64,000 nucleotides of DNA from an uncultured Chloroflexia bacterium (lineage in GTDB: Bacteria; Chloroflexota; Limnocylindria; QHBO01). The stretch is from NCBI GenBank assembly GCA_963810925.1, contig CAWEPF010000010.1:47407-111406 (forward strand), written 5' to 3'. Below, piece after piece: positions 32,251-42,213 of this stretch (position 1 is its first letter; each line of letters starts with the position of its first letter). Under the pieces are notes generated by a model. That model saw only the letters and a list, made by a program, of their open reading frames with translations, was not told the DNA's origin and did no database searches. The position numbers and the translations under genes are program-made.

Positions 32251-32922
32251 CTAGTGCGCGACGGCTCCCGCGGGAAGGGTCCCGGTGGTCCTGGGAGCCG
32301 GACCGACCACCTCGCCCCGGTGCCGCTCTCGGTGCCGCGCCACCTTGGCCCGGTTGCCGCAGGTCCGCATCGTGCACCACCGCCGCCGCCCGGTGGGGGA
32401 GCGGTCGATGAAGATCTCGCGGCAGCCGTCGTTGGCGCAGATGCGCAGCCGATGGAGGTCCCGCCCGGCGAGGTACTCGGCAAACGTGCCGGCCACCAGC
32501 GCGCGGCCCTGGTCCAGCCGGTCGCCCACCCGGGCGAGCGCGTACTGGTTGCCTTCGGTGTTCATCTCGAGCTGGTGGTAGTGCAGGCCGCGGCGGAGGA
32601 TGTGATTGAGGTCGCGCACCTGTCCGCGCTGCAGCTCGCCGCTCGTGGTCAGCTCGACGGCAATGGCCCGAATCAGGTCCCGCAGGGCGCGATAGTCATC
32701 GAGGCGTCGGCTTGCGTCCTGCGGGTCGTCGCGGAGCTGAGCGCGCTCGGCACTCGCGGCGCGATCGGACAGCAGCCGCTCCTGGCGGAGCCAGGCCACC
32801 AGTGCGTCCCCCTGGGCGATGTGATCGGTCGCCCGCCCACGGGTGAAGGTCTCGGTGTTGACGAATCGGACCCACAGGTCGGTGGACGGTGGCTCGGGGA
32901 GGACGTCTCTCGGGTGACTCAT
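32251..32922 (-). CDS. CGNR zinc-finger (ABATE domain) putative regulator
   Basis: The C-terminal region reads CANDGCREIFIDRSPTGRRRWCTMRTCGNRAKV. A perfect TATAAT (plus-strand 32934-32939) lies 11 nt upstream of the ATG. Confidence 0.85.
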   Translation of the reverse strand: MSHPRDVLPEPPSTDLWVRFVNTETFTRGRATDHIAQGDALVAWLRQERLLSDRAASAERAQLRDDPQDASRRLDDYRALRDLIRAIAVELTTSGELQRGQVRDLNHILRRGLHYHQLEMNTEGNQYALARVGDRLDQGRALVAGTFAEYLAGRDLHRLRICANDGCREIFIDRSPTGRRRWCTMRTCGNRAKVARHRERHRGEVVGPAPRTTGTLPAGAVAH

Positions 32923-33321: not shown

Positions 33322-35070
33322 ATGCCACGACCCCGCCCCGTCACCCGTTCCGCGCACGGCGGGTTGAGCAATGCCGAGCTGGCGGCAACGTTCCGGGAGG
33401 TGGGTGACCTCCTCGACCTGCTCGACGAGGTTCCGTACAAGGCAGTCGCCTACCGACGCGTGGCCGACGCCATCGAGCGCTACCCGGTGGACCTGACCCC
33501 GCTCGTGGTGGAGGGCCACACCCCGAAGATCCCTGGCGTAGGCCCGGCCATTGGTGCGCGGCTCACGGAGCTGGCCACGACCGGGAAGCTGGAGTACCAC
33601 CAGCGCCTTCGCGAACAGATCCCGCCCGGCCTCCTGGACGTGCTGCGGATCAGCGGCGTGGGGCCGCGCACCGCGCGCCAGCTCCACGTGGAGCTGGGCA
33701 TCACGTCCATCGACGAGCTGCGCGCCGCCGCGGAGACCGGGCGCGTCCGCCAGGTGAGCGGCATGTCGGCGCGGACCGAGCAGAACATCCTGGCCGGGAT
33801 CGGGCGCCTGGACCAGCAGTCCGGCCGGCTCCTGCTCCACGACGCCGACCGGCTGGCGGGAGAGCTTTTGGCCGGCCTGGGGCGGGTGCCGGGCATCCAC
33901 CAGATTGCGAGTGCCGGGTCGCTGCGGCGGCGCCGGGCCACGATCGGCGACCTCGACATCCTGGCCGCCTGCGACGACCCCGCCGAGCTCATTCGGGCGT
34001 TCGAGCAGCTGCCGGACGTCGAGCGCGTGCTCAACGCGGGGACCGACAAGGCCAGCGTGGTCCTGCGAGCCGACGGGGACCGCCAGGTTGACCTCATGCT
34101 GTGCCGTCCCGAGGCGTGGGGCTCGCATCTCGTCCACTTCACCGGCAGCAAGGAGCACAACGTCGAGCTGCGCGCCCGGGCGCAGGACCGGGGGCTATCC
34201 CTGAGCGAGAAGGGGTTCAAGGACGTGGAGACCGGGGAGCTGCTCCTGGCCGCGACCGAGGAGGACGTGTACGCCCGTCTCGACATGGCGTGGGTGCCGC
34301 CCGAGCTGCGCGAGGGCGAAGGAGAGGTGGCCGCGGCGGCCGCCGGCAAGCTCCCGCGCCTGGTCGAGCGGAGCGACATCCGCGGCGACACGCACACCCA
34401 TTCCAACTGGACCGATGGCGTGGACGACATCGAAACCATGGCGGGAGCGGCGCGGGCATCCGGCCTGGAGTACATGGTCCTGACCGATCACTCGCCATCC
34501 CTCGGCGTGGCGCGCGGGCTGTCCCCGGAACGGGTGGCCGAGCAACGGGCCGAGATCGACCGCCTCAACGGGGAGTTGAGCCCATTCCGCATCCTGCACG
34601 GCACCGAGATGGAGATCCTGGCCGACGCGACCCTGGACTACCCCGACGAGATCCTGGCCACGTTCGACGTGGTCGTGGCCAGCATCCACGCCGCGCGCAG
34701 CCAGCCGGTGGATCAGCTCACGAAGCGCGCGCTGGCGGCCATCGAGAACCCACACGTGGACATCATTGCCCACCCCACCGGGCGGATCGTGAATCGGCGC
34801 GAGCCGGTCTCGTTCCACTGGCCCGAGCTGTTCGAGGCTGCCGCGCGGACGGGCACCATGCTCGAGATCAACGGCAGTCCGCGCCTCGACCTGGACGAGC
34901 GGCTGGCGCGGGACGCGGCTGTTGCCGGCGTGCGGCTCACGCTCTCGAGCGACGCGCACCGGACCGAGGAGCTGGGCTACCTCGACTACGCGGTGGGCGT
35001 GGCCCGTCGGGCGGGTCTCACGGCCGAGCAGGTGGCCACCACCCGCGGTGCCGGGGAGCTGCTCCGATGA
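33322..35070 (+). CDS. polX: family X DNA polymerase with C-terminal PHP (3'-5' exonuclease/phosphoesterase) domain
   Basis: 582 aa. HhH motifs (IPGVGPAIG, ISGVGPRTA), GSLRRRRATIGDLDIL and the PHP motif GDTHTHSNWTDG are present. Confidence 0.9.
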   Translation: MPRPRPVTRSAHGGLSNAELAATFREVGDLLDLLDEVPYKAVAYRRVADAIERYPVDLTPLVVEGHTPKIPGVGPAIGARLTELATTGKLEYHQRLREQIPPGLLDVLRISGVGPRTARQLHVELGITSIDELRAAAETGRVRQVSGMSARTEQNILAGIGRLDQQSGRLLLHDADRLAGELLAGLGRVPGIHQIASAGSLRRRRATIGDLDILAACDDPAELIRAFEQLPDVERVLNAGTDKASVVLRADGDRQVDLMLCRPEAWGSHLVHFTGSKEHNVELRARAQDRGLSLSEKGFKDVETGELLLAATEEDVYARLDMAWVPPELREGEGEVAAAAAGKLPRLVERSDIRGDTHTHSNWTDGVDDIETMAGAARASGLEYMVLTDHSPSLGVARGLSPERVAEQRAEIDRLNGELSPFRILHGTEMEILADATLDYPDEILATFDVVVASIHAARSQPVDQLTKRALAAIENPHVDIIAHPTGRIVNRREPVSFHWPELFEAAARTGTMLEINGSPRLDLDERLARDAAVAGVRLTLSSDAHRTEELGYLDYAVGVARRAGLTAEQVATTRGAGELLR

Positions 35071-35855
35071 GCGCGGTGGCGGACAGCCGCCGGCTGCTTC
35101 GCGCGGGACGCGTCCGGGGCGCGCGGACCGTGAAACGGGCCGGACCTTTCGTCCTGCCCCTCATCCTCGCCGCGCTCGTGGCCGCGGGTTGGGTGGTCGA
35201 CATGGTCGCCCTGGCCGGCGTGCTGGCCCTCGAGCTGGCCGTGGCCGGGATGGGCATGGCTGCGCTGCTGGGCGCAGCCCGCCCGTCGGTGGGATACGCG
35301 CGCTACGCGATCCTCGCCGTGGCCGCGGTGTCGATCACCCTGGCCGGGCGGCTCCTGCCGCCCGGCATCGGTCCATTGGCCGCTCCCGTGGCCTGGGCCT
35401 TCCTGTGGTGGACCCTGTACACCGAGCGGATGGGGCCGACGGCCCCCACGAATCGGCTCTCGCTCGACTTGCTGCTGGTTTTCACCGTCTTCTGCGCCGC
35501 GGTCGGCCTGGCGGGAGTGATTCCGTCGGAGCTGTGGCTGCTCCAGCTCGTCCTGCTGGCCATGTTGGTCGCGGTGCCCTGTCTGCGCGCCGCGGAGGCC
35601 CGGGGAGCCGTTGGCGTCCCGGCGGTGGGGCACGGGGCGCTCCACCTGCTGGTCGTGCTCCAGGTGGCGACCGCCCTGATCCTGCTCAACCTGCCCCAAC
35701 CTGTGGGTCCCGCACTGATCGCGCTGACCTTCCACGCCTGGAGCGGCGCGGCCGACGCACTGGAGTCCGGCGTGCCGAGTCGCGCCGTAGCCCTGGAGTA
35801 CGGCTCGCTGGCCGTTATCGGCGCATTCGTGGCTCTCTTCCTGAGTCGGAGCTGA
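35067..35855 (+). CDS. polytopic membrane protein, hypothetical
   Basis: The ATG at 35067 overlaps the polX stop (ATGA). About 7 hydrophobic segments. Only the last 262 aa of ORF 34101..35855 look coding. Confidence 0.6.
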   Translation: MSAVADSRRLLRAGRVRGARTVKRAGPFVLPLILAALVAAGWVVDMVALAGVLALELAVAGMGMAALLGAARPSVGYARYAILAVAAVSITLAGRLLPPGIGPLAAPVAWAFLWWTLYTERMGPTAPTNRLSLDLLLVFTVFCAAVGLAGVIPSELWLLQLVLLAMLVAVPCLRAAEARGAVGVPAVGHGALHLLVVLQVATALILLNLPQPVGPALIALTFHAWSGAADALESGVPSRAVALEYGSLAVIGAFVALFLSRS

Positions 35856-35862
35856 AATCGCG

Positions 35863-35891
35863 TTGACACTCCGGGGGGCCGATGGTAGAAA
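35863..35891 (+). promoter_or_regulatory. candidate promoter TTGACA, 17-nt spacer, TAGAAA
   Basis: Lies in the 120-bp gap before the TPR gene. Confidence 0.35.
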
Positions 35892-35975
35892 GTGTCGCCC
35901 TCCGACGGTTCCGCTGGTCGACGCGGCGCCGTTTCGCCTATTTGATGCATTTTTTCCGGGGAGAGTCGCTCGCCC

Positions 35976-36803
35976 ATGACCGCCGGGGATCCTGACCTCA
36001 CCATCCGCCAACGGCGCCAGCTCGCGGAGATCGCGATTGCTCAGGCTGCCCGCGGGGAGTGGGAGGAATCGGTCGATACCAACCGCCAGATCGTGGAGCT
36101 GGGCGGTGACGTGGACGCGTACAACCGGCTGGGCAAGGCCCTGGCCGAGCTCGACCGCCTGCCCGAGGCGCTGGAGGCCTACCAGTCCGCCCTCGAACGG
36201 GAGCGCACGAACCGGATTGCAGAGCGGAACGTGGAGCGGCTCGAGGCCCTCATCGCGGCCGAGGGCACGACCCGCGGCGACCGGCATGCGGCCCGTGCTC
36301 CCGCGGCCCTGTTCATCGAGGAGATGGGCAAGACCGGCAGCGCTCGACTGATCAACCTCGCGCCGGCCAAGCAGCTGGCGCCGCTCTCCGCGGGGGATGC
36401 GATCGAGCTCCACGCGGCCGATGGCGAGCTGGAGGCCAAGGTCCGCGGGATCAAGGTGGGCCAGGTGGAGCCGCGGGTCGCGAATCGGCTGCTGGAACTC
36501 ATGTCCAAGGGGAATCGGTACGAGGCGGCCCTGACCACGGTCACCAACGACGATCTGCGACTCATCATCCGCGAGGTCTTCGCGGACCCCGCGAACTTTG
36601 GAAAGGTGTCCTTCCCGGGTGCCGCCGCGGGCCGGAGCACTGACGTCCGACCGTACATGAAGGGCAGTGCCCTCCGGTACGATGACGACGACGAGTCGGA
36701 GGAGTCCGAAGAAGAGCCGGAAGAGGTCGAGGAGCTCGACACCAGCCTTCCGGAGCTCTCGAGCGAGCCCGATGAAGAAGAGGAACTGCTCGAAGAGACG
36801 TAG
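35976..36803 (+). CDS. TPR-like protein with a central beta-rich domain and a strongly acidic C-terminal tail
   Basis: 275 aa. N-terminal TPR-like helices (AYNRLGKALAELDRLPEALEAYQSAL). The tail reads DDDDESEESEEEPEEVEELDTSLPELSSEPDEEEELLEET. Confidence 0.7.
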   Translation: MTAGDPDLTIRQRRQLAEIAIAQAARGEWEESVDTNRQIVELGGDVDAYNRLGKALAELDRLPEALEAYQSALERERTNRIAERNVERLEALIAAEGTTRGDRHAARAPAALFIEEMGKTGSARLINLAPAKQLAPLSAGDAIELHAADGELEAKVRGIKVGQVEPRVANRLLELMSKGNRYEAALTTVTNDDLRLIIREVFADPANFGKVSFPGAAAGRSTDVRPYMKGSALRYDDDDESEESEEEPEEVEELDTSLPELSSEPDEEEELLEET

Positions 36804-36808
36804 CCGCG

Positions 36809-39640
36809 ATGACCTTGGCCGAACGGAAGAGACTCGACCACGTCGTCCTTCCGAGGCGCCTTCCGGGACTCGCCCTGCTCGAGCGGTACTTTCCCTCCCC
36901 GGCCGACAACGTCCTCGACGCCGAGCTGGCGTCGTTCGCCACGTCGGGCGACACGATCCTCGATCCCTGGGCGGGCACCGGCTGGACGGCCCGTCGCGCG
37001 GTCGCGCACGGCATGCGGGTCGTGGCCGCCGAAGCCAGCCCGTTCGCCCAGATGGCCGCCCAGGCCTTCCTCCTGGCGCCCGAGGTGGCGGCCGTGGACG
37101 CCGCGTTTGCCCAGCTGGCCTCGTCGCGCCGGGTGGACATCCCGCTCCGCCAGCACATCGAGGAGCTGTACGCATCCCGCTGCCCGGTCTGCAACCGCCC
37201 GGTCCTGGCCGAGGAGTTCATCTGGCCCCGGGACGGCGATGCGCCCGGCCGCAAGGTGTACCGATGCGCCGCGTGTGACGTGGCCCTTGGCGGACCCGAC
37301 GAGCGCGTCGCGCCGGTGGACGAGTCGGACTACGCCAAGCTCGGGTTGGAGCCGCCCCAACCGGCCGAGCCCGCCGCCGGCGTGGAGCCGGCGGCCGACG
37401 CCGACGAGGACCTGCCGCCCGCCCCGATGGGCCTGATCGGAGACACGGGGGCGACCGAGCCCCCACCCCTGGCCCCGCTGGGCGAGCCGGGCGGCCCGCC
37501 GCCACCGCCGGCCCGGGCGCCGGATCCGCCGCTGTCGCTCACCGCGCCCGAAGGGCCCCGCTACGCCTCGACCGTGCAGCCCACGCCGCTTCCTGCCCCG
37601 GTGGGGACCGACGTCCGGCAGGGACTGGCCTACCAGCAGCTCCGCGACCGGTTCCCGGTGCTCGACGAGCGGGGAGACGTGGTGGACGAGGTGCTGGACC
37701 TGTACACCTCGCGCAACCTGTATGCCCTGCAGACGATCGCCAACAAGATCGATGCGGAATTCCACGACCAGCCCCTGGCCGCCGTATTCCGCCTGGCGCT
37801 GGCCGGCTGCCTGCTCCCCGCGAGCCGCCTGAACGGGTATCCGGGCCGCGTCGCATCCCTGCGGATCAGCGGCGGCCACGTCCGTCAGCCCGCGTCCCGC
37901 CATCACCGCGAGGTCAACGTCTGGCGCCTGTTCGAGGTCGCGTACCAGGACGTGCGCACCGCCCTGGCGGCGCTGGGACGCGACCGCCGTCCCGTCCGGT
38001 TCGCCGCCGACCTGGACGAGCTGGGGGGCATGAGCGCGGCCAACCTGCTGTGGATCCGATGCCGGCCTGCGGTCGTGGGCCAGTACCTGCCCCCCGAGAG
38101 CGTCGACCTGGTCATCGGCTCGCCGCCGCCCCCCGAGAGCGTGGACGAGCTGAGCTTCGAGTACCTGGCCACGGCCTGGCTGATGGGACGCGAAGCGGCC
38201 GAGACACTCCGCCTCGAGCCGCTGTTCGGCGGCGGCTCGGCCCGTTCCGATGGAGCCGAGGTGACCGCCTTCCGGCATGCCCTGGCGTCGGCCACCGGCG
38301 CCCTGAAGCCGGGCGGCTGGTGCACCGTCCTGCTGGAGGGTGACGACCCGGACCGCGTCCTCGCCGTGGCCCTCGCGGCCGCGGCGGCGGAGCTGGAGCT
38401 CGTGCACGCCATTCCGCGCGAGTCGGGGAGGGTGGGGGACGGGGTGACCCTCCATTTCCGTCGCGCCTCGGCCGAGGATCGACTGCGCGACGCCGTACGC
38501 CCCAAGCCGCTCCGACTGGGCGCCGAAGGGGGCCACCTGACCTATCCCGAGCTGGCCGGCGCGATCGAACGCGCGGCGGTCAACCTCCTGCGCGAGCGAG
38601 GCGAGCCGGCCGGCCTGTCGCGGATCGCGTGTGCAGCGCTGATCGAGCTCGAACGGACCGGGCTGCTCCGTCGCCTGGTCCAGGCGCGTTCGGACGGCGA
38701 GGCCGGAGACGCGACGGTGGAGGCGACCGATGAGCAGCTGGGGCGCGTCGACCGAGGCGGGCCAGCCCTGCTGGCCGTCCTGCTCCGCGAGGAGCTGTGG
38801 CGCGACGATCATCCGGCCCTGGTGCGGGTCGGAGAGGACGGGCCGCGTCCGTCATGGTGGCTGCGCGAGCCGACGCTGGGCGAGGGCACGATCGCGGATC
38901 GGGTGGAATGGGCCACCTTCTCGCTGCTCACGACAGCCGGTCGCCTCGACGAATCGGGCTTCCTGGATCGGATCTACGCCCTGTTCCCGGGCACCGCCTC
39001 GCCTGACGAGGAGCTCGTGCGGGCCTGCCTCGGTGCCTACGGGACGGTGGGGGAGCGTGGCCAGATCCACTCCGAGGAAGATCTCGCGGCCCGGATGGCC
39101 GACCACACCCGGATCCTGGCCGGAATCGTGGACTTCGGACATCGGCTCGGGCTCCGGGCCTGGGTCAGCCGCCGAGAGCAGGATCGCCCGTGGCGGCATG
39201 GCGCCCTCGCCGACCTGCTCAAGGAGGACGAGCGGCGCACGTACCTTCCCCTCGTGATCCGTGCCCCGGCCGAGGTGCTCGGCGCGGTGGACGCCCTGTG
39301 GTACGTGCGGAACCGGTCCAGCTACCTGTTCGAGGTGGAGTGGACGGCCATGATCGGTGACGCCGTCCTGCGGCGAGGTGCCGAGATCCCGACCTCGGAG
39401 CAGCAGGCCCGCTTCCTCGTCATTCCCGCCGAGCGGACAGAGCTCCTGCGCTTGAAGATCGGCCGCTCGCCGTGGCTGCGCGCCGAAATGGAACGTCAGA
39501 ACTGGCACGTCCTGAAGTGGCCCCATCTCGAGGCCCTGGTGGCGCGTGACGGGGCGCGGATGGAGTGGCTGGAACCCATGGTCGGGCTCGATCCGCTGGT
39601 CGAGCGCGGCGGCAAACAGCTCACCATGTTCGGGGAGTAA
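36809..39640 (+). CDS. 943-aa Zn-ribbon methyltransferase-like protein with a degenerate catalytic motif and an uncharacterised C-terminal domain
   Basis: SAM motif I-like ILDPWAGTGWT (36962-). CPVC...CAAC Zn ribbon (37181-37276). Pro-rich linker. SPPP in place of (D/N)PP(Y/F) at 38120-38131. C-terminal segment VDALWY...YLFEVEW. Confidence 0.75.
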   Translation: MTLAERKRLDHVVLPRRLPGLALLERYFPSPADNVLDAELASFATSGDTILDPWAGTGWTARRAVAHGMRVVAAEASPFAQMAAQAFLLAPEVAAVDAAFAQLASSRRVDIPLRQHIEELYASRCPVCNRPVLAEEFIWPRDGDAPGRKVYRCAACDVALGGPDERVAPVDESDYAKLGLEPPQPAEPAAGVEPAADADEDLPPAPMGLIGDTGATEPPPLAPLGEPGGPPPPPARAPDPPLSLTAPEGPRYASTVQPTPLPAPVGTDVRQGLAYQQLRDRFPVLDERGDVVDEVLDLYTSRNLYALQTIANKIDAEFHDQPLAAVFRLALAGCLLPASRLNGYPGRVASLRISGGHVRQPASRHHREVNVWRLFEVAYQDVRTALAALGRDRRPVRFAADLDELGGMSAANLLWIRCRPAVVGQYLPPESVDLVIGSPPPPESVDELSFEYLATAWLMGREAAETLRLEPLFGGGSARSDGAEVTAFRHALASATGALKPGGWCTVLLEGDDPDRVLAVALAAAAAELELVHAIPRESGRVGDGVTLHFRRASAEDRLRDAVRPKPLRLGAEGGHLTYPELAGAIERAAVNLLRERGEPAGLSRIACAALIELERTGLLRRLVQARSDGEAGDATVEATDEQLGRVDRGGPALLAVLLREELWRDDHPALVRVGEDGPRPSWWLREPTLGEGTIADRVEWATFSLLTTAGRLDESGFLDRIYALFPGTASPDEELVRACLGAYGTVGERGQIHSEEDLAARMADHTRILAGIVDFGHRLGLRAWVSRREQDRPWRHGALADLLKEDERRTYLPLVIRAPAEVLGAVDALWYVRNRSSYLFEVEWTAMIGDAVLRRGAEIPTSEQQARFLVIPAERTELLRLKIGRSPWLRAEMERQNWHVLKWPHLEALVARDGARMEWLEPMVGLDPLVERGGKQLTMFGE

Positions 39641-39682
39641 CCCCCGGCGGTCGGCTTGACCCTCGCTCGTATAGTCGGGACC

Positions 39683-39715
39683 GGGAGTGCCGCGGTTCCC
39701 CCCTGCGGCACTCCC
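39683..39715. terminator. perfect 11-bp-stem hairpin between convergent genes (bidirectional terminator candidate)
   Basis: GGGAGTGCCGC, 11-nt loop, GCGGCACTCCC. Confidence 0.6.
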
Positions 39716-39721
39716 GTCTTG

Positions 39722-40069
39722 CTATCCGGTGGCTGCTCCGTTGCCCCGCCGGCTTCGGCGCGCGGCGGGTCGACCCATCGCCCGACGGACGACCTGCATC
39801 ACCTCGCGGACGTACGGCTCGCCCTGTCCGGAGTCGATCGCGTGGGTCAGGCAGCCATCGATGTGGTCCTCGAGGACGAGCATCGCCACCTGGTCGGCGG
39901 CCGCGGTCATGGCTTCCACCTGCTGGAGGATGTCGAGGCAGTAGGCCTCGTTGTCGACCAGCCGTTGGATGCCGCGGGCCTGGCCCTCGATCCGCCGGAG
40001 GCGGTTCTGGAGCTCCTTGCGGTCGCGGGAGTAGCTGTGGCGAAAGTGGGCGGGATCGGTCATGTCCAT
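39722..40069 (-). CDS. csoR: CsoR/RcnR-family metal-sensing repressor
   Basis: LQNRLRRIEGQARGIQRLV is present, together with a C...H...C ligand pattern (YCLD, EDH, GC). Confidence 0.85.
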   Translation of the reverse strand: MDMTDPAHFRHSYSRDRKELQNRLRRIEGQARGIQRLVDNEAYCLDILQQVEAMTAAADQVAMLVLEDHIDGCLTHAIDSGQGEPYVREVMQVVRRAMGRPAARRSRRGNGAATG

Positions 40070-40162: not shown

Positions 40163-42213
40163 GTGAGCAATCGCCTCGCCGGCGCGACGAGCCCGTACCT
40201 GCTCCAGCACGCCGAAAACCCGGTCGACTGGTATCCGTGGGGACCCGAAGCCCTGGCCCGCGCTCGGGTGGAGGATCGGCCGATCTTCCTGTCCATCGGC
40301 TACTCCGCCTGCCATTGGTGCCACGTCATGGCCCACGAGTCGTTCGAGGATCCGGCGCTCGCCGAGCGACTGAACCGCGACTTCGTGTCCATCAAGGTGG
40401 ATCGCGAGGAGCGCCCCGACATCGACGACGTGTACATGGCCGCGGTGCAGGCCATGACCGGGTCCGGCGGCTGGCCGCTGAGCGTGTTCCTGACCCCGGA
40501 CCTGGAGCCGTTCTTCGGCGGCACGTACTTCCCGCCGGCGGACCGGCACGGCCTGCCGGCGTTCGGGACCGTGCTCGACGGGGTGGCCGAGGCGTATCGC
40601 GACCGGCGCGGCGAGGTCAGCGACGTGGCCGCGCACCTGGCCGAGCACCTCCGCACCCAGATGGCGGCACCGGTCGCCGGTGCCGGAACCGGGGGACGCG
40701 GTCCTGGACGGCGCGGTCCGGCGCCTCGCGTCGGCATTCGACCCGCGCGACGGCGGATTCGGCCCTGCCCCCAAGTTCCCGGCGCCCATGGCCCTCGAGT
40801 TCCTCCTGCGCCGCTGGCGCGATACCCGCGACGAGGCGACGCTCCGGATGGTGACCTTCACCCTCGACCGCATGGCCGACGGGGGGATCCACGACCAGCT
40901 GGCAGGTGGCTTCGCGCGCTACAGCACCGACGTCCGATGGCTGGCGCCGCACTTCGAGAAGATGCTGTACGACAACGCGCTCCTGGCCCATGCCTACCTC
41001 GAGGCCTTCCGAGCGACGGGCGACGGACCGATACGCCCGGGTCGCACGCTCCACGCTGGACTTCCTGCTGGCCGAGCTGCGGACCGATGACGGCGGCTTC
41101 GCCGCCGCCCTGGACGCCGACAGCGAGGGCGAAGAAGGACGCTTCTACGTATGGGATGCCGATGCCGCCCGGACGGCGCTGGCGGAAGCGGGTCTCGAGC
41201 CCACCGCCATGGAGACGATGGCTGCCTACTGGGACATCCGGGACGGCGGGAACTGGGAGGGCCACACGATCCTGCACGTCACCGACGCTCCGCCGCCCGA
41301 CCCGGGGGACCTCGAGCGGGCTCGGGCCGCGCTCCTCGCCGCCCGGTCATCGCGCGTCCGCCCGGGACGCGACGGAAAGCAGCTGGCCGCCTGGAACGGG
41401 ATGGCCCTGCGCGCCTTCGCCGGCGCCGCGCTCGTCCTGGGCGACGAGCGCTTCGTGATCGGCACCCGCGACCTCGTCCGGTTCGTGCGCGACACGTTGC
41501 TCCACGACGGGGATCGCCTGTGGCGCACGGCGCGTGACGGCGTGGCACATACCGCTGGATTCGCCGAGGACTATGCGGCCGTGGCCGACGGTCTCCTCGA
41601 GGCGTATGGCGCGCTGGGCGAGCCCGACGACCTGCGCCTCGCGGAGGCGCTCATGGGACGGTTGCTGACCGATTTCTGGGATCACGAGTCAGGGACGCTG
41701 TTCGATACCGGGCCCGAGCACGAGCAGACCGTGGCTCGGCCGCGATCACTCGTGGACGGGGCGACGCCCAGCGCGAACGCCATGGCCGCCGACGTGTGGC
41801 TGCGTCTGGCGTTGCTCGCCGGCGACGAGGAGCATCACCGGCGCGCGCGCCGGATCCTCGCCGCGGTTGGGCCCGCGCTCGAACGCCAACCCACCGGGTT
41901 CGGACGGATGCTGAGCGCGGCCGACCGGGCGGAGCGGCCGGCCACCGACGTGGTGGTGGCCGGGGAGGCGCAGGACGAGCGGTCGGTGGCGCTCCGCCGA
42001 GCCGCCGCTCGACCCTACGCGCCGGACCTGGTCATGGCCCCGCTCACGCCGGGTGACGCCCTCGAATCGCGCCCGCTGTTCGCGGGCAAGACGCCCCGCA
42101 ACGGCGCGCCCACCGCCTTCGTGTGCCGTGGCTACGCCTGCGACGCCCCGACCACCGATCCGGCCGAGGTCGAGCAGCAGGTCAATCGCCTCTCCGCGGC
42201 GCCCGCCGGCTAG
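40163..42213 (+). pseudogene. thioredoxin-domain protein (DUF255 / YyaL-type, N-acylglucosamine-epimerase-like C-terminal domain) with two +1 frame changes
   Basis: [11 protein letters not shown]...[11 protein letters not shown] lies in frame 1. [24 protein letters not shown]...[12 protein letters not shown] lies in frame 2. [14 protein letters not shown]...EGRFYVW... lies in frame 3. The shifts are at 40679-40680 and 41025-41026. Confidence 0.85.

Follow-up and report, generated by a model that had tools for sequence, protein, structure and literature searches.

The DUF1156/COG1743 methylases form the methylase component of three-gene, DUF499-ATPase-centred defence systems that are related to BREX and are also called 'Hma' (bioRxiv 10.1101/2025.10.09.681413). 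A relative of these enzymes is encoded in a 64,000-nt stretch of DNA from an uncultured Chloroflexia bacterium (contig CAWEPF010000010.1, assembly GCA_963810925.1). This stretch is referred to here as the window, and all coordinates are window positions. The relative is the larger product of a two-gene module, which encodes a 275-aa protein with tetratricopeptide (TPR) repeats and an acidic tail (the TPR protein) and a 943-aa protein (the large protein). The pair is real, co-inherited and uncharacterised, and it is present in every Limnocylindria genome examined.

Compared with the DUF1156/COG1743 methylases, the large protein has in common motif I, the Zn-ribbon insert, the helical insert (xYTxRNL in the large protein, MFNDRQL in the methylases), the strand of motif IV and the C-terminal lobe. 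Unlike these methylases, it lacks the DUF1156 domain, its DPPY motif is replaced by a variable loop, and no DUF499 or helicase genes adjoin it. Its C-terminal half is composed of winged helices, a nuclease-like domain and a clamp motif, and it is encoded by a core gene, not an island gene. The profile of its family also matches beta-class N6/N4 methylases in the PDB (M.RsrI, TTHA0409, MboIIA and CcrM), at 1e-10 around motif I and weakly at the strand of motif IV, whereas the large protein has a permuted order (motif I before motif IV), approximately 330 residues between the two halves and no (D/S)PPY. The R.NmeDI-type nucleases (PF27126) and the restriction endonuclease record WP_244818546.1 share with its C-terminal domain a D-x12-13-FEVExT signature and the R-rich helix that follows (97% probability). 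They are stand-alone nucleases of 350-420 aa from restriction-modification or plasmid contexts, whereas the window domain is fused to an apparently dead methylase and a clamp motif. NucS/EndoMS is a PD-(D/E)xK mismatch-repair nuclease that binds the sliding clamp via a C-terminal motif. As a functional analogy only, it resembles the large protein in its nuclease-superfamily domain, its C-terminal clamp peptide and its status as a chromosomal core gene, and it differs in having neither a methylase-like module nor a TPR partner. Three uncharacterised metagenomic proteins (P0353, P0336 and P0441) are homologous over their full length and have their domains in the same order. Precomputed PF27126 matches exist for P0353 and P0441; the tails of all three fit QLxLF less well, and P0353 and P0336 keep DPFxGSG and DPPY. 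The large protein thus appears to join known parts (a DUF1156-type fold, an NmeDI-type nuclease domain and a clamp-binding peptide) in an unusual combination, which is widespread in the Chloroflexota sequences found and is unannotated.

We favour, at a rough probability of 45%, the reading that the large protein is a DNA-processing nuclease of restriction-modification type that has been domesticated, is tethered to the clamp and has a TPR/acidic protein as its regulator, in a polX neighbourhood. It most likely serves chromosome replication or repair and not phage defence, and an active DNA methyltransferase or a mobile defence system is not supported by the sequence comparisons. A genome scan retrieved at least 551 relatives among species-representative genomes, and the synteny counts for Limnocylindria given below cover the best 80 of these. 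The features of the module are as follows.

35863-35891, + strand, predicted promoter of the TPR and large-gene pair (sequence; conservation in related loci)
35976-36803, + strand, TPR/acidic-tail gene, 275 aa (open reading frame list; G+C content at third codon positions, GC3)
36809-39640, + strand, large gene, 943 aa (open reading frame list; GC3)
36956-36982, + strand, predicted S-adenosylmethionine (SAM)-binding motif I, ILDPWAGTG, aa 50-58
37169-37318, + strand, four-Cys Zn-ribbon insert, aa 121-170 (C125, C128, C153 and C156)
37346-37612, + strand, Pro-rich disordered linker, aa 180-268, a Limnocylindria-specific insertion
37613-38098, + strand, helical insert common to DUF1156-type methylases, aa 269-430
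38117-38134, + strand, degenerate position of catalytic motif IV, aa 437-442, GSPPPP, after strand VDLVI
38543-39088, + strand, two winged-helix-like modules, aa 579-760 (secondary structure of the model)
39089-39553, + strand, restriction-endonuclease-like (NmeDI_C-type) alpha/beta domain, aa 761-915
39617-39631, + strand, C-terminal QLTMF, aa 937-941 of 943, in a disordered tail (match to the beta-clamp consensus QLxLF)
39682-39716, + strand, sequence-conserved hairpin with a 12-bp stem and the loop GGTTCCCCCCT, between the large gene and csoR

The methylase-like half of the large protein

The large protein begins with a split methylase-like fold, which carries the Zn-ribbon and helical inserts. 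It continues with two winged-helix-like modules and a restriction-endonuclease-like domain, and it ends in a tail of the clamp-binding type. A first-pass annotation of this DNA had listed a series of peptide motifs in the protein, and all of them are present in the order given: HVVLPRRLP (aa 11-19), ILDPWAGTGWT (aa 50-60), AAEASPFA (aa 73-80), CPVC (aa 125-128), CAAC (aa 153-156), SPPPPESVDELSFEYLATAWL (aa 438-458), VDALWY (aa 827-832), YLFEVEW (aa 839-845) and FLVIPAERT (aa 869-877). It had recognised in them the motif order of the Zn-ribbon adenine methylases (COG1743/DUF1156), which agrees with our profile comparison. Residues 31-534 align with the Haloarcula DUF1156 adenine methylase P0443 (hhalign 99.1%, E 1.4e-18, 397 columns). 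The alignment runs from motif I through the Zn-ribbon and the helical insert to the strand of motif IV and the C-terminal lobe, and within the helical insert LYTSRNLYAL is paired with MFNDRQLLCL and ERNVW with ENNVW. By this homology, the N-terminal half is assigned to the DUF1156-type Zn-ribbon N6-methylase fold. The DUF1156 domain itself (PF06634) gave no Pfam match in the window protein at E up to 0.1; the hhalign query begins at the equivalent of P0443 residue 87, and the DUF1156 domain of P0443 lies at aa 14-62.

Searches with the two proteins of the pair against Pfam, NCBIfam, PADLOC and PHROGs returned only TPR repeats and sub-threshold methylase matches. The large protein has no match to N6_N4_Mtase (PF01555), for which its orthologs score 11-16 bits (cut-off 26.7), and it reaches none of the methylase thresholds of Pfam and NCBIfam. 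The PADLOC matches are partial and weak (MTase_II, 1.2e-5; mad2, 1.4e-5) and fall in the motif I region or in aa 291-531. Used alone, residues 24-88 of the window protein give marginal matches to TTHA0409 (0.003) and M.RsrI. An AlphaFold2 model built with 71 diverse sequences has a mean predicted local distance difference test score (pLDDT) of 86 and a predicted template modelling score (pTM) of 0.86; a model built with 26 close orthologs only (pLDDT 54) was unusable. Foldseek relates the whole model to many class I methylases with a probability of 1.00, as the earlier suggestion of a methyltransferase-like protein would predict for its fold. In the viral library of Foldseek, DNA N4/N6 methylases rank top and the best match is a Pandoravirus N4-cytosine DNA methylase, and the top PDB matches are tRNA/rRNA m2G and m7G methylases (Trm11, TrmM and Bud23).

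The DPWAGTG of motif I is invariant in Limnocylindria, where aa 75, at the end of strand 2, is also kept acidic (E or D). In most distant relatives, Gly56, the first glycine of motif I, is replaced by R or Q (DPFCRxx, DLHGRGGW). The GSPPPP at the position of motif IV aligns with DPPY of M.RsrI, SPPY of TTHA0409 and DPPY of P0443. Among orthologs with 66-93% identity, this position reads GAPPPP, GSVPPP, GSVTDA, GMPSVA, TAIGPP, SSIADA, GSTGAP or AAPHPA. Distant members often have Pro-Pro, but with P, R or L in place of the aromatic residue; (D/N/S)PP(Y/F/W) is found in no family member except a few outliers. The catalytic (D/N/S)PP(Y/F) loop therefore appears to be decayed, and the SAM-binding loop appears intact in the Limnocylindria lineage. 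A methyltransferase activity finds no support here, because motif IV (SPPPP in the window) varies freely among such close orthologs. The Chloroflexota core-gene form looks like a pseudo-methylase, which may still bind SAM in the Limnocylindria lineage.

The inserts of this half are conserved to different extents. All four Zn-ribbon cysteines are kept in at least 90% of the family, and the model places beta-strands at residues 122-169. The helical insert contains LYTSRNLYAL, of which R302 is invariant, and E368-x-N370-x-W372. The Pro-rich linker (31% Pro, pLDDT <50) contains the short motifs DLPPAPxGL, GExGxPP and RxxSTVxP, which are invariant in Limnocylindria. These short motifs resemble docking peptides, and their presence does not track the TPR partner. 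Docking of the TPR protein on the linker motifs was rejected as a general rule, since a lineage whose large proteins are 35-40% identical keeps the TPR protein and lacks the linker.

Limnocylindria retain motif I and an acidic side chain where strand 2 ends (E75 or D), and tRNA/rRNA methylases top the PDB matches. Both observations would also fit a housekeeping RNA, protein or small-molecule methyltransferase with a non-canonical catalytic loop. We regard this explanation as very improbable. The structural matches are of the generic Rossmann-fold kind (target-normalised TM score approximately 0.25-0.49, E 3e-4 or worse), whereas the profile homology is specifically to DNA N6/N4 methylases. Moreover, the substrate-side loop is not conserved, the glycines of the SAM loop are lost in most of the family, and a nuclease-type domain with a clamp motif is ill-suited to an RNA or protein methylase.

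The nuclease-type domain and the clamp-type tail

The two winged-helix-like modules include the conserved residues RGEP 597-600, WWL 683-685 and DRVEW 697-701, and the relative P0336 has a weak winged-helix match in Pfam. For the domain that follows, the first-pass annotation had considered a possible PD-(D/E)xK-like fold, and profile homology supports a nuclease-type fold. Residues 764-910 align with the C-terminal domain of WP_244818546.1, a Caballeronia plasmid gene product annotated as a type II restriction endonuclease (hhalign 97.2%, E 4.4e-11, 137 columns), and aa 764-891 match the same gene by tblastn (E 4e-4). The aligned signature reads VDALWY...LFEVEWTA in the window and IDVIWL...AFEVEHTT in WP_244818546.1, with D...FEVExT shared. 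Precomputed matches to NmeDI_C (PF27126) are present in relatives; they are marked weak or faint in the close ones and are unmarked (E ≤1e-5) in P0353.

In the model, this domain has the order alpha-beta-beta-beta-alpha-beta, with helix 759-779, strands 783-786, 829-833 and 837-843, helix 850-859 and strand 866-872. The candidate metal-binding residues are D828, E842 and E844, plus R876 and K883. D828 is located just before strand 829-833, E842 on strand 837-843 and E844 just after it, which is the layout of a PD-(D/E)xK site with the lysine replaced by glutamate. BamHI is a precedent for a PD-(D/E)xK variant with glutamate instead of lysine. Across the 15 Limnocylindria sequences analysed, neither D828 nor E844 varies, and E842 is changed (to D) in a single sequence. 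The lineage of the window and the 35-40% identical lineage that has the TPR partner both retain the D...FEVEWTAM signature strictly. Of 56 distant members, 46 retain D828, 54 retain R876 and 53 retain K/R883. Based on these comparisons, the C-terminal domain is classified as restriction-endonuclease type, with the D...E-x-E acidic triad kept.

The last residues of the large protein are GGKQLTMFGE, and aa 936-943 have pLDDT <50. At the C-termini of clamp clients, QLxLF is the accepted bacterial beta-clamp-binding consensus, with QLSLF as its full form (PMC4549789). The tail of the family follows Q-[LIM]-x-[LM]-[FL] (QLPLF, QLSLF, QLALF, QIPLF, QLDLF and QMELF). The wider pattern Q-[LIMV]-x-[LMIF]-[FLWY] falls among the C-terminal 14 residues of all 120 Limnocylindria sequences, of 46 of 67 full-length representatives and of 39 of 42 further full-length matches. 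The exceptions include several sequences that seem to be frameshifted or truncated. Of the 56 distant members, 53 have Q937, at an overall identity of approximately 25-30%. We consider the QLxLF tail to be the best-conserved linear motif of the whole family and the clue to function that carries most weight across it. As a sequence match, the tail would place the protein on clamp-loaded DNA, in replication or repair. The first-pass annotation had missed both this tail and the membrane-protein gene between polX and the module.

In the favoured reading, the dead methylase module would be a DNA-recognition module and possibly a SAM sensor. Through its clamp motif, the large protein would be brought to DNA that carries the clamp, at replication forks or in repair patches, and the nuclease domain would cut or process DNA there, giving a replication- or repair-coupled nuclease alongside PolX. 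The co-transcribed TPR protein would be a regulator or adaptor of the large protein. Its acidic tail may mimic DNA and restrain the nuclease, and its TPR repeats may bind a partner.

Several points weigh against this reading. Among the 56 distant members, E842 is kept in only 18 and E844 in only 22; both are lost in many distant relatives, and nuclease activity therefore cannot be the family-wide function. The Foldseek search with the whole model returned no nuclease match for the C-terminal domain among the top 50, which were methylase-fold or low-probability matches only. The nuclease assignment rests on profile comparison and on the annotation of another record, and the clamp motif is a sequence match only, so that binding to DnaN is putative. 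The intact motif I in Limnocylindria leaves some SAM-dependent chemistry possible. Between polX and the module lie the membrane-protein gene and a separate promoter, and the polX neighbourhood is suggestive and not a proof; the neighbours of distant homologs are varied and mostly metabolic. For every family member the function is inferred.

The main rival explanation is a non-catalytic, clamp-binding scaffold or regulator whose two enzymatic centres have become vestigial. Binding of DNA or partners on the clamp would then be the only task of the methylase-like, Zn-ribbon and winged-helix modules, with the TPR protein as a second adaptor, for example to control clamp occupancy or to recruit PolX or other factors. 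The residues conserved throughout the family are non-catalytic ones (the Zn-ribbon cysteines, R302, E368/N370/W372, RGEP 597-600, W684, E700, W831, R876, W899 and QLxLF), and each of motif I, motif IV and the E-x-E pair is degenerate in a large proportion of the family, as such a scaffold would predict. However, D...FEVEWTAM is strictly conserved in the window's lineage and the 35-40% lineage and matches the signature of an annotated restriction endonuclease, and motif I is invariant in Limnocylindria. Ligand-type residues kept in this way would be unusual in a pure scaffold. We consider this rival unlikely.

The TPR partner, the operon and its neighbours

The TPR protein has a pI of 4.5. Two TPR repeats were located at aa ~18-88 by profile match to consensus TPR structures, and TPR_1 matches aa 46-79 (30.7 bits, Pfam cut-off 27.8). 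The middle domain (aa ~96-232) is conserved and slightly basic, with FIEEMGKTG...GNRYEA...RPYMKG in the window and the invariants FxEExGKTG, GDxxEL, VEPR, GNxY and RPYxKG. Outside the repeats, the remaining two thirds of the protein gave no match in Pfam, NCBIfam or the PDB. The acidic tail (aa 233-275) has a net charge of -23 over 43 residues. The TPR protein shares 59-96% amino acid identity with those in Limnocylindria loci and approximately 50% with those in L083 and L089, two loci of the lineage with more divergent large proteins.

Both genes have a coding-type GC3 (0.85 for the TPR gene and 0.88 for the large gene). The earlier description of two genes 5 bp apart, preceded by a 120-bp gap with a TTGACA, a 17-nt spacer and a TAGAAA, proved correct. 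The TPR stop codon TAG (36801-36803) is followed by 5 nt (ccgcg) and then by the ATG of the large gene. The -35 element TTGACA (35863-35868) is separated by 17 nt from the -10 element TAGAAA (35886-35891), and a TG at 35883-35884 makes an extended -10 (TGgTAGAAA). A generic promoter scan does not list this element, because position 6 of the -10 hexamer is A. TTGAC[AG]-N16-18-TAn[AT][AT]n is found at the same place in 77 of 78 related loci and is therefore no chance match. The spacer is 17 nt in 74 of the related loci, TGn directly precedes the -10 hexamer in 76, and the promoter sits 57-99 nt ahead of the TPR start codon. The conserved form TTGACA-17-TGnTAnAA is also present in L089, where the large protein belongs to a lineage with 35% identity.

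Downstream of the large gene, the first-pass annotation had reported a perfect 11-bp hairpin. The hairpin is present and perfect, and its stem length is 12 bp (arms 39682-39693 and 39705-39716), with an 11-nt loop and no T-run. It is kept in sequence and structure in all 81 Limnocylindria loci that include the region, with the consensus GGGAGTG(C/T)CG-(T/C)GGTTCCCCCC(T/C)G-CGGCACTCCC and a near-invariant C-rich loop. Across the 81 loci, the 11 inner pairs are standard throughout except for one pair in one sequence; three compensatory changes occur, and many U-G wobbles are valid only in plus-strand RNA. A TAnnnT hexamer lies 6-8 nt upstream of the hairpin in at least 90% of loci (here TATAGT, 39670-39675). 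TTGACC at 39656-39661 is only 8 nt from TATAGT and was therefore rejected as a -35 element from which a standard promoter could drive the hairpin. A dispersed repeat was also rejected, as the hairpin is unique within the window, and no Rfam match was found. The hairpin is probably the 3' end of the operon mRNA, and possibly a separate small RNA, e.g., the 5' end of one running antisense into csoR. Promoter, TPR gene, large gene and hairpin are best described, from their joint conservation, as a predicted vertically inherited chromosomal operon. The solid evidence for a functional linkage of the TPR and large proteins consists only of the conserved adjacency and the shared promoter.

The surrounding gene order was derived from GC3 analysis and Pfam.

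32251-32922, - strand, ABATE/zf-CGNR regulator (GC3 and Pfam)
33322-35070, + strand, polX (PolX core and PHP domain), the conserved upstream neighbour (Pfam; synteny)
35067-35855, + strand, polytopic membrane protein, 262 aa, at least 6 hydrophobic spans (orthologs in 75 loci)
35856-35975, intergenic gap of 120 nt upstream of the TPR gene
39722-40069, - strand, csoR, convergent with the large gene
40169-42189, + strand, DUF255 thioredoxin-domain gene, beyond csoR

The module had been placed directly downstream of polX. This does not hold, as polX ends at 35070 and the 262-aa membrane-protein gene (35067-35855) intervenes, with an ATG that overlaps the polX stop codon as ATGA. A membrane protein is an odd partner for a repair polymerase. 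The pairing of polX with the membrane-protein gene recurs in the distant locus L083, where PolX is 48% identical. The usual ATPase partners of DUF1156 methylases, whose absence had been pointed out before, are indeed missing. The neighbours are polX, the membrane protein, the TPR gene, csoR and DUF255, and no DUF499 ATPase or helicase was found beside the module in the window or in the loci L001 and L002, which have the same neighbours. The window has a G+C content of approximately 70%, and the best matches of its proteins are from metagenome-assembled genomes named Candidatus Limnocylindria or Chloroflexota. The nearest genome locus is L003, with 97% identity at the protein level. The DUF255/thioredoxin gene (40169-42189) is broken near 40663-40704 and again near 41021-41029 and is thereby spread over three reading frames; its ortholog in L003 is intact. 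The split gene is either a pseudogene or the result of assembly indel errors.

Distribution of the family and its likely role

The best 80 relatives are all from Limnocylindria-type genomes. A few of them carry other taxon labels yet show the same synteny at 65-88% identity, and these labels are probably binning errors. The order polX, membrane protein, TPR gene, large gene and csoR (reverse strand) is kept in every Limnocylindria locus with enough flanking sequence (73-78 of 80), and the large gene occupies the same syntenic site in 80 of the 80 species representatives listed. The TPR gene adjoins the large gene in the 78 loci with a TPR match, i.e., in every Limnocylindria locus that reaches far enough, which confirms the pairing noted from the window alone. 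Identity to the window is 61-97% for the large protein, 64-97% for PolX, 59-96% for the TPR protein and 37-95% for the membrane protein; the large protein is thus about as conserved as PolX.

In the second lineage, in which the large protein is 35-40% identical, the TPR gene is just upstream in 4 of 4 contigs. Locus L083 (36% identity) has the order polX, membrane protein, 77-aa ORF, TPR gene, DinB_2 (opposite strand) and large gene. The DinB_2-family gene of L083 (6981-7877, - strand) lies between the TPR and large genes, and the pair therefore stays adjacent even where co-transcription is broken. The other contigs of this lineage with TPR upstream are L089, the P0245 contig and L093, the last of which is cut off at its start within the part of the TPR gene that encodes the acidic tail. 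No TPR neighbour accompanies the more distant homologs (25-33% identity), which are found in ordinary chromosomal contexts: one is head to head with recA-recX-rny-dnaG-rpoD, and others lie after RNase J and an HD protein or among metabolic genes. Small Cas4/PDDEXK_1-family genes are located 3-5 kb from two distant homologs (L090, 2875-3474; L091, 13288-13809) in otherwise unrelated neighbourhoods, and this proximity may be a coincidence.

A profile search of 1.84 billion cluster representatives (50% clustering) retrieved 1578 representatives at E ≤1e-3 and 285 at E ≤1e-30, and full-length members have 750-985 aa. All distant homologs for which the source names a taxon belong to Chloroflexota, Anaerolineae among them, and the large-protein family has been seen so far in Chloroflexota only. 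The sources searched hold no functional names for it, save two automatic JGI annotations of the methylase-like or Zn-ribbon segment ('16S rRNA G966 N2-methylase RsmD' and 'predicted RNA-binding Zn-ribbon protein'). A scan of viral contigs found no relatives of the large protein, and among plasmids the window protein gave one weak domain-level match and no full-length copies.

The first-pass annotation had called a role in DNA modification, repair or defence plausible. In its strongest form, this would make the large protein a SAM-dependent enzyme still active in restriction-modification or defence, with methylase and nuclease in one chain (type IIG/IIC-like, or a DUF1156 variant related to BREX), which would methylate self DNA and cut foreign DNA. 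Its homology to the DUF1156 methylases of DUF499-centred, BREX-related defence systems, the weak PADLOC matches to MTase_II and mad2, and the intact motif I of the window protein are consistent with such an enzyme. So are the outliers P0353, P0336 and P0441, which pass the N6_N4_Mtase threshold with 59-77 bits; P0353 also adjoins an AAA_15/AAA_21 ATPase. We nevertheless judge it quite improbable for the module. Motif IV is unconstrained among close orthologs, ATPase or helicase partners are absent at the window locus, L001 and L002, and the methylase thresholds of Pfam and NCBIfam are not reached. Defence genes are patchy, whereas this is a single-copy, syntenic core gene of the whole class, with housekeeping neighbourhoods in distant relatives, no viral copies and no full-length plasmid copies. 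Methylase activity and a defence role are not supported, and the clamp motif favours repair or replication.

In the region 4921-9427 of L085, the gene for P0353, which combines DPFAGSG, DPPY and an unmarked NmeDI_C match, lies directly after the AAA_15/AAA_21 ATPase gene and a 154-aa ORF. P0353 is possibly a candidate for an active form of this architecture that serves in restriction or defence, and the three outliers probably represent the active ancestral state.

A broader extension of the favoured reading is more tentative, and we rate it as somewhat unlikely. The pair, maybe with the polX and membrane-protein genes, would be a previously unrecognised replication-coupled DNA surveillance/repair system that is core to Limnocylindria. 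The dead methylase would read a lesion, mismatch or strand mark, the nuclease would incise, and QLxLF would couple the reaction to the clamp. The TPR protein with its DNA-mimicking acidic tail would act as the gate, and the whole would be a MutL/NucS analogue of independent origin.

For annotation, motif-based pipelines will call this family 'DNA methylase' or defence, although the catalytic motif is gone. If the favoured reading of a domesticated, clamp-tethered nuclease is true, the large protein would show clearly that a restriction-modification enzyme can be taken over for core chromosome maintenance, and the decay of its catalytic loop would be traceable stepwise from canonical relatives such as P0353 to the Limnocylindria core gene. 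It would also provide a new bacterial sliding-clamp client and a new repair nuclease for a large, mostly uncultured phylum.

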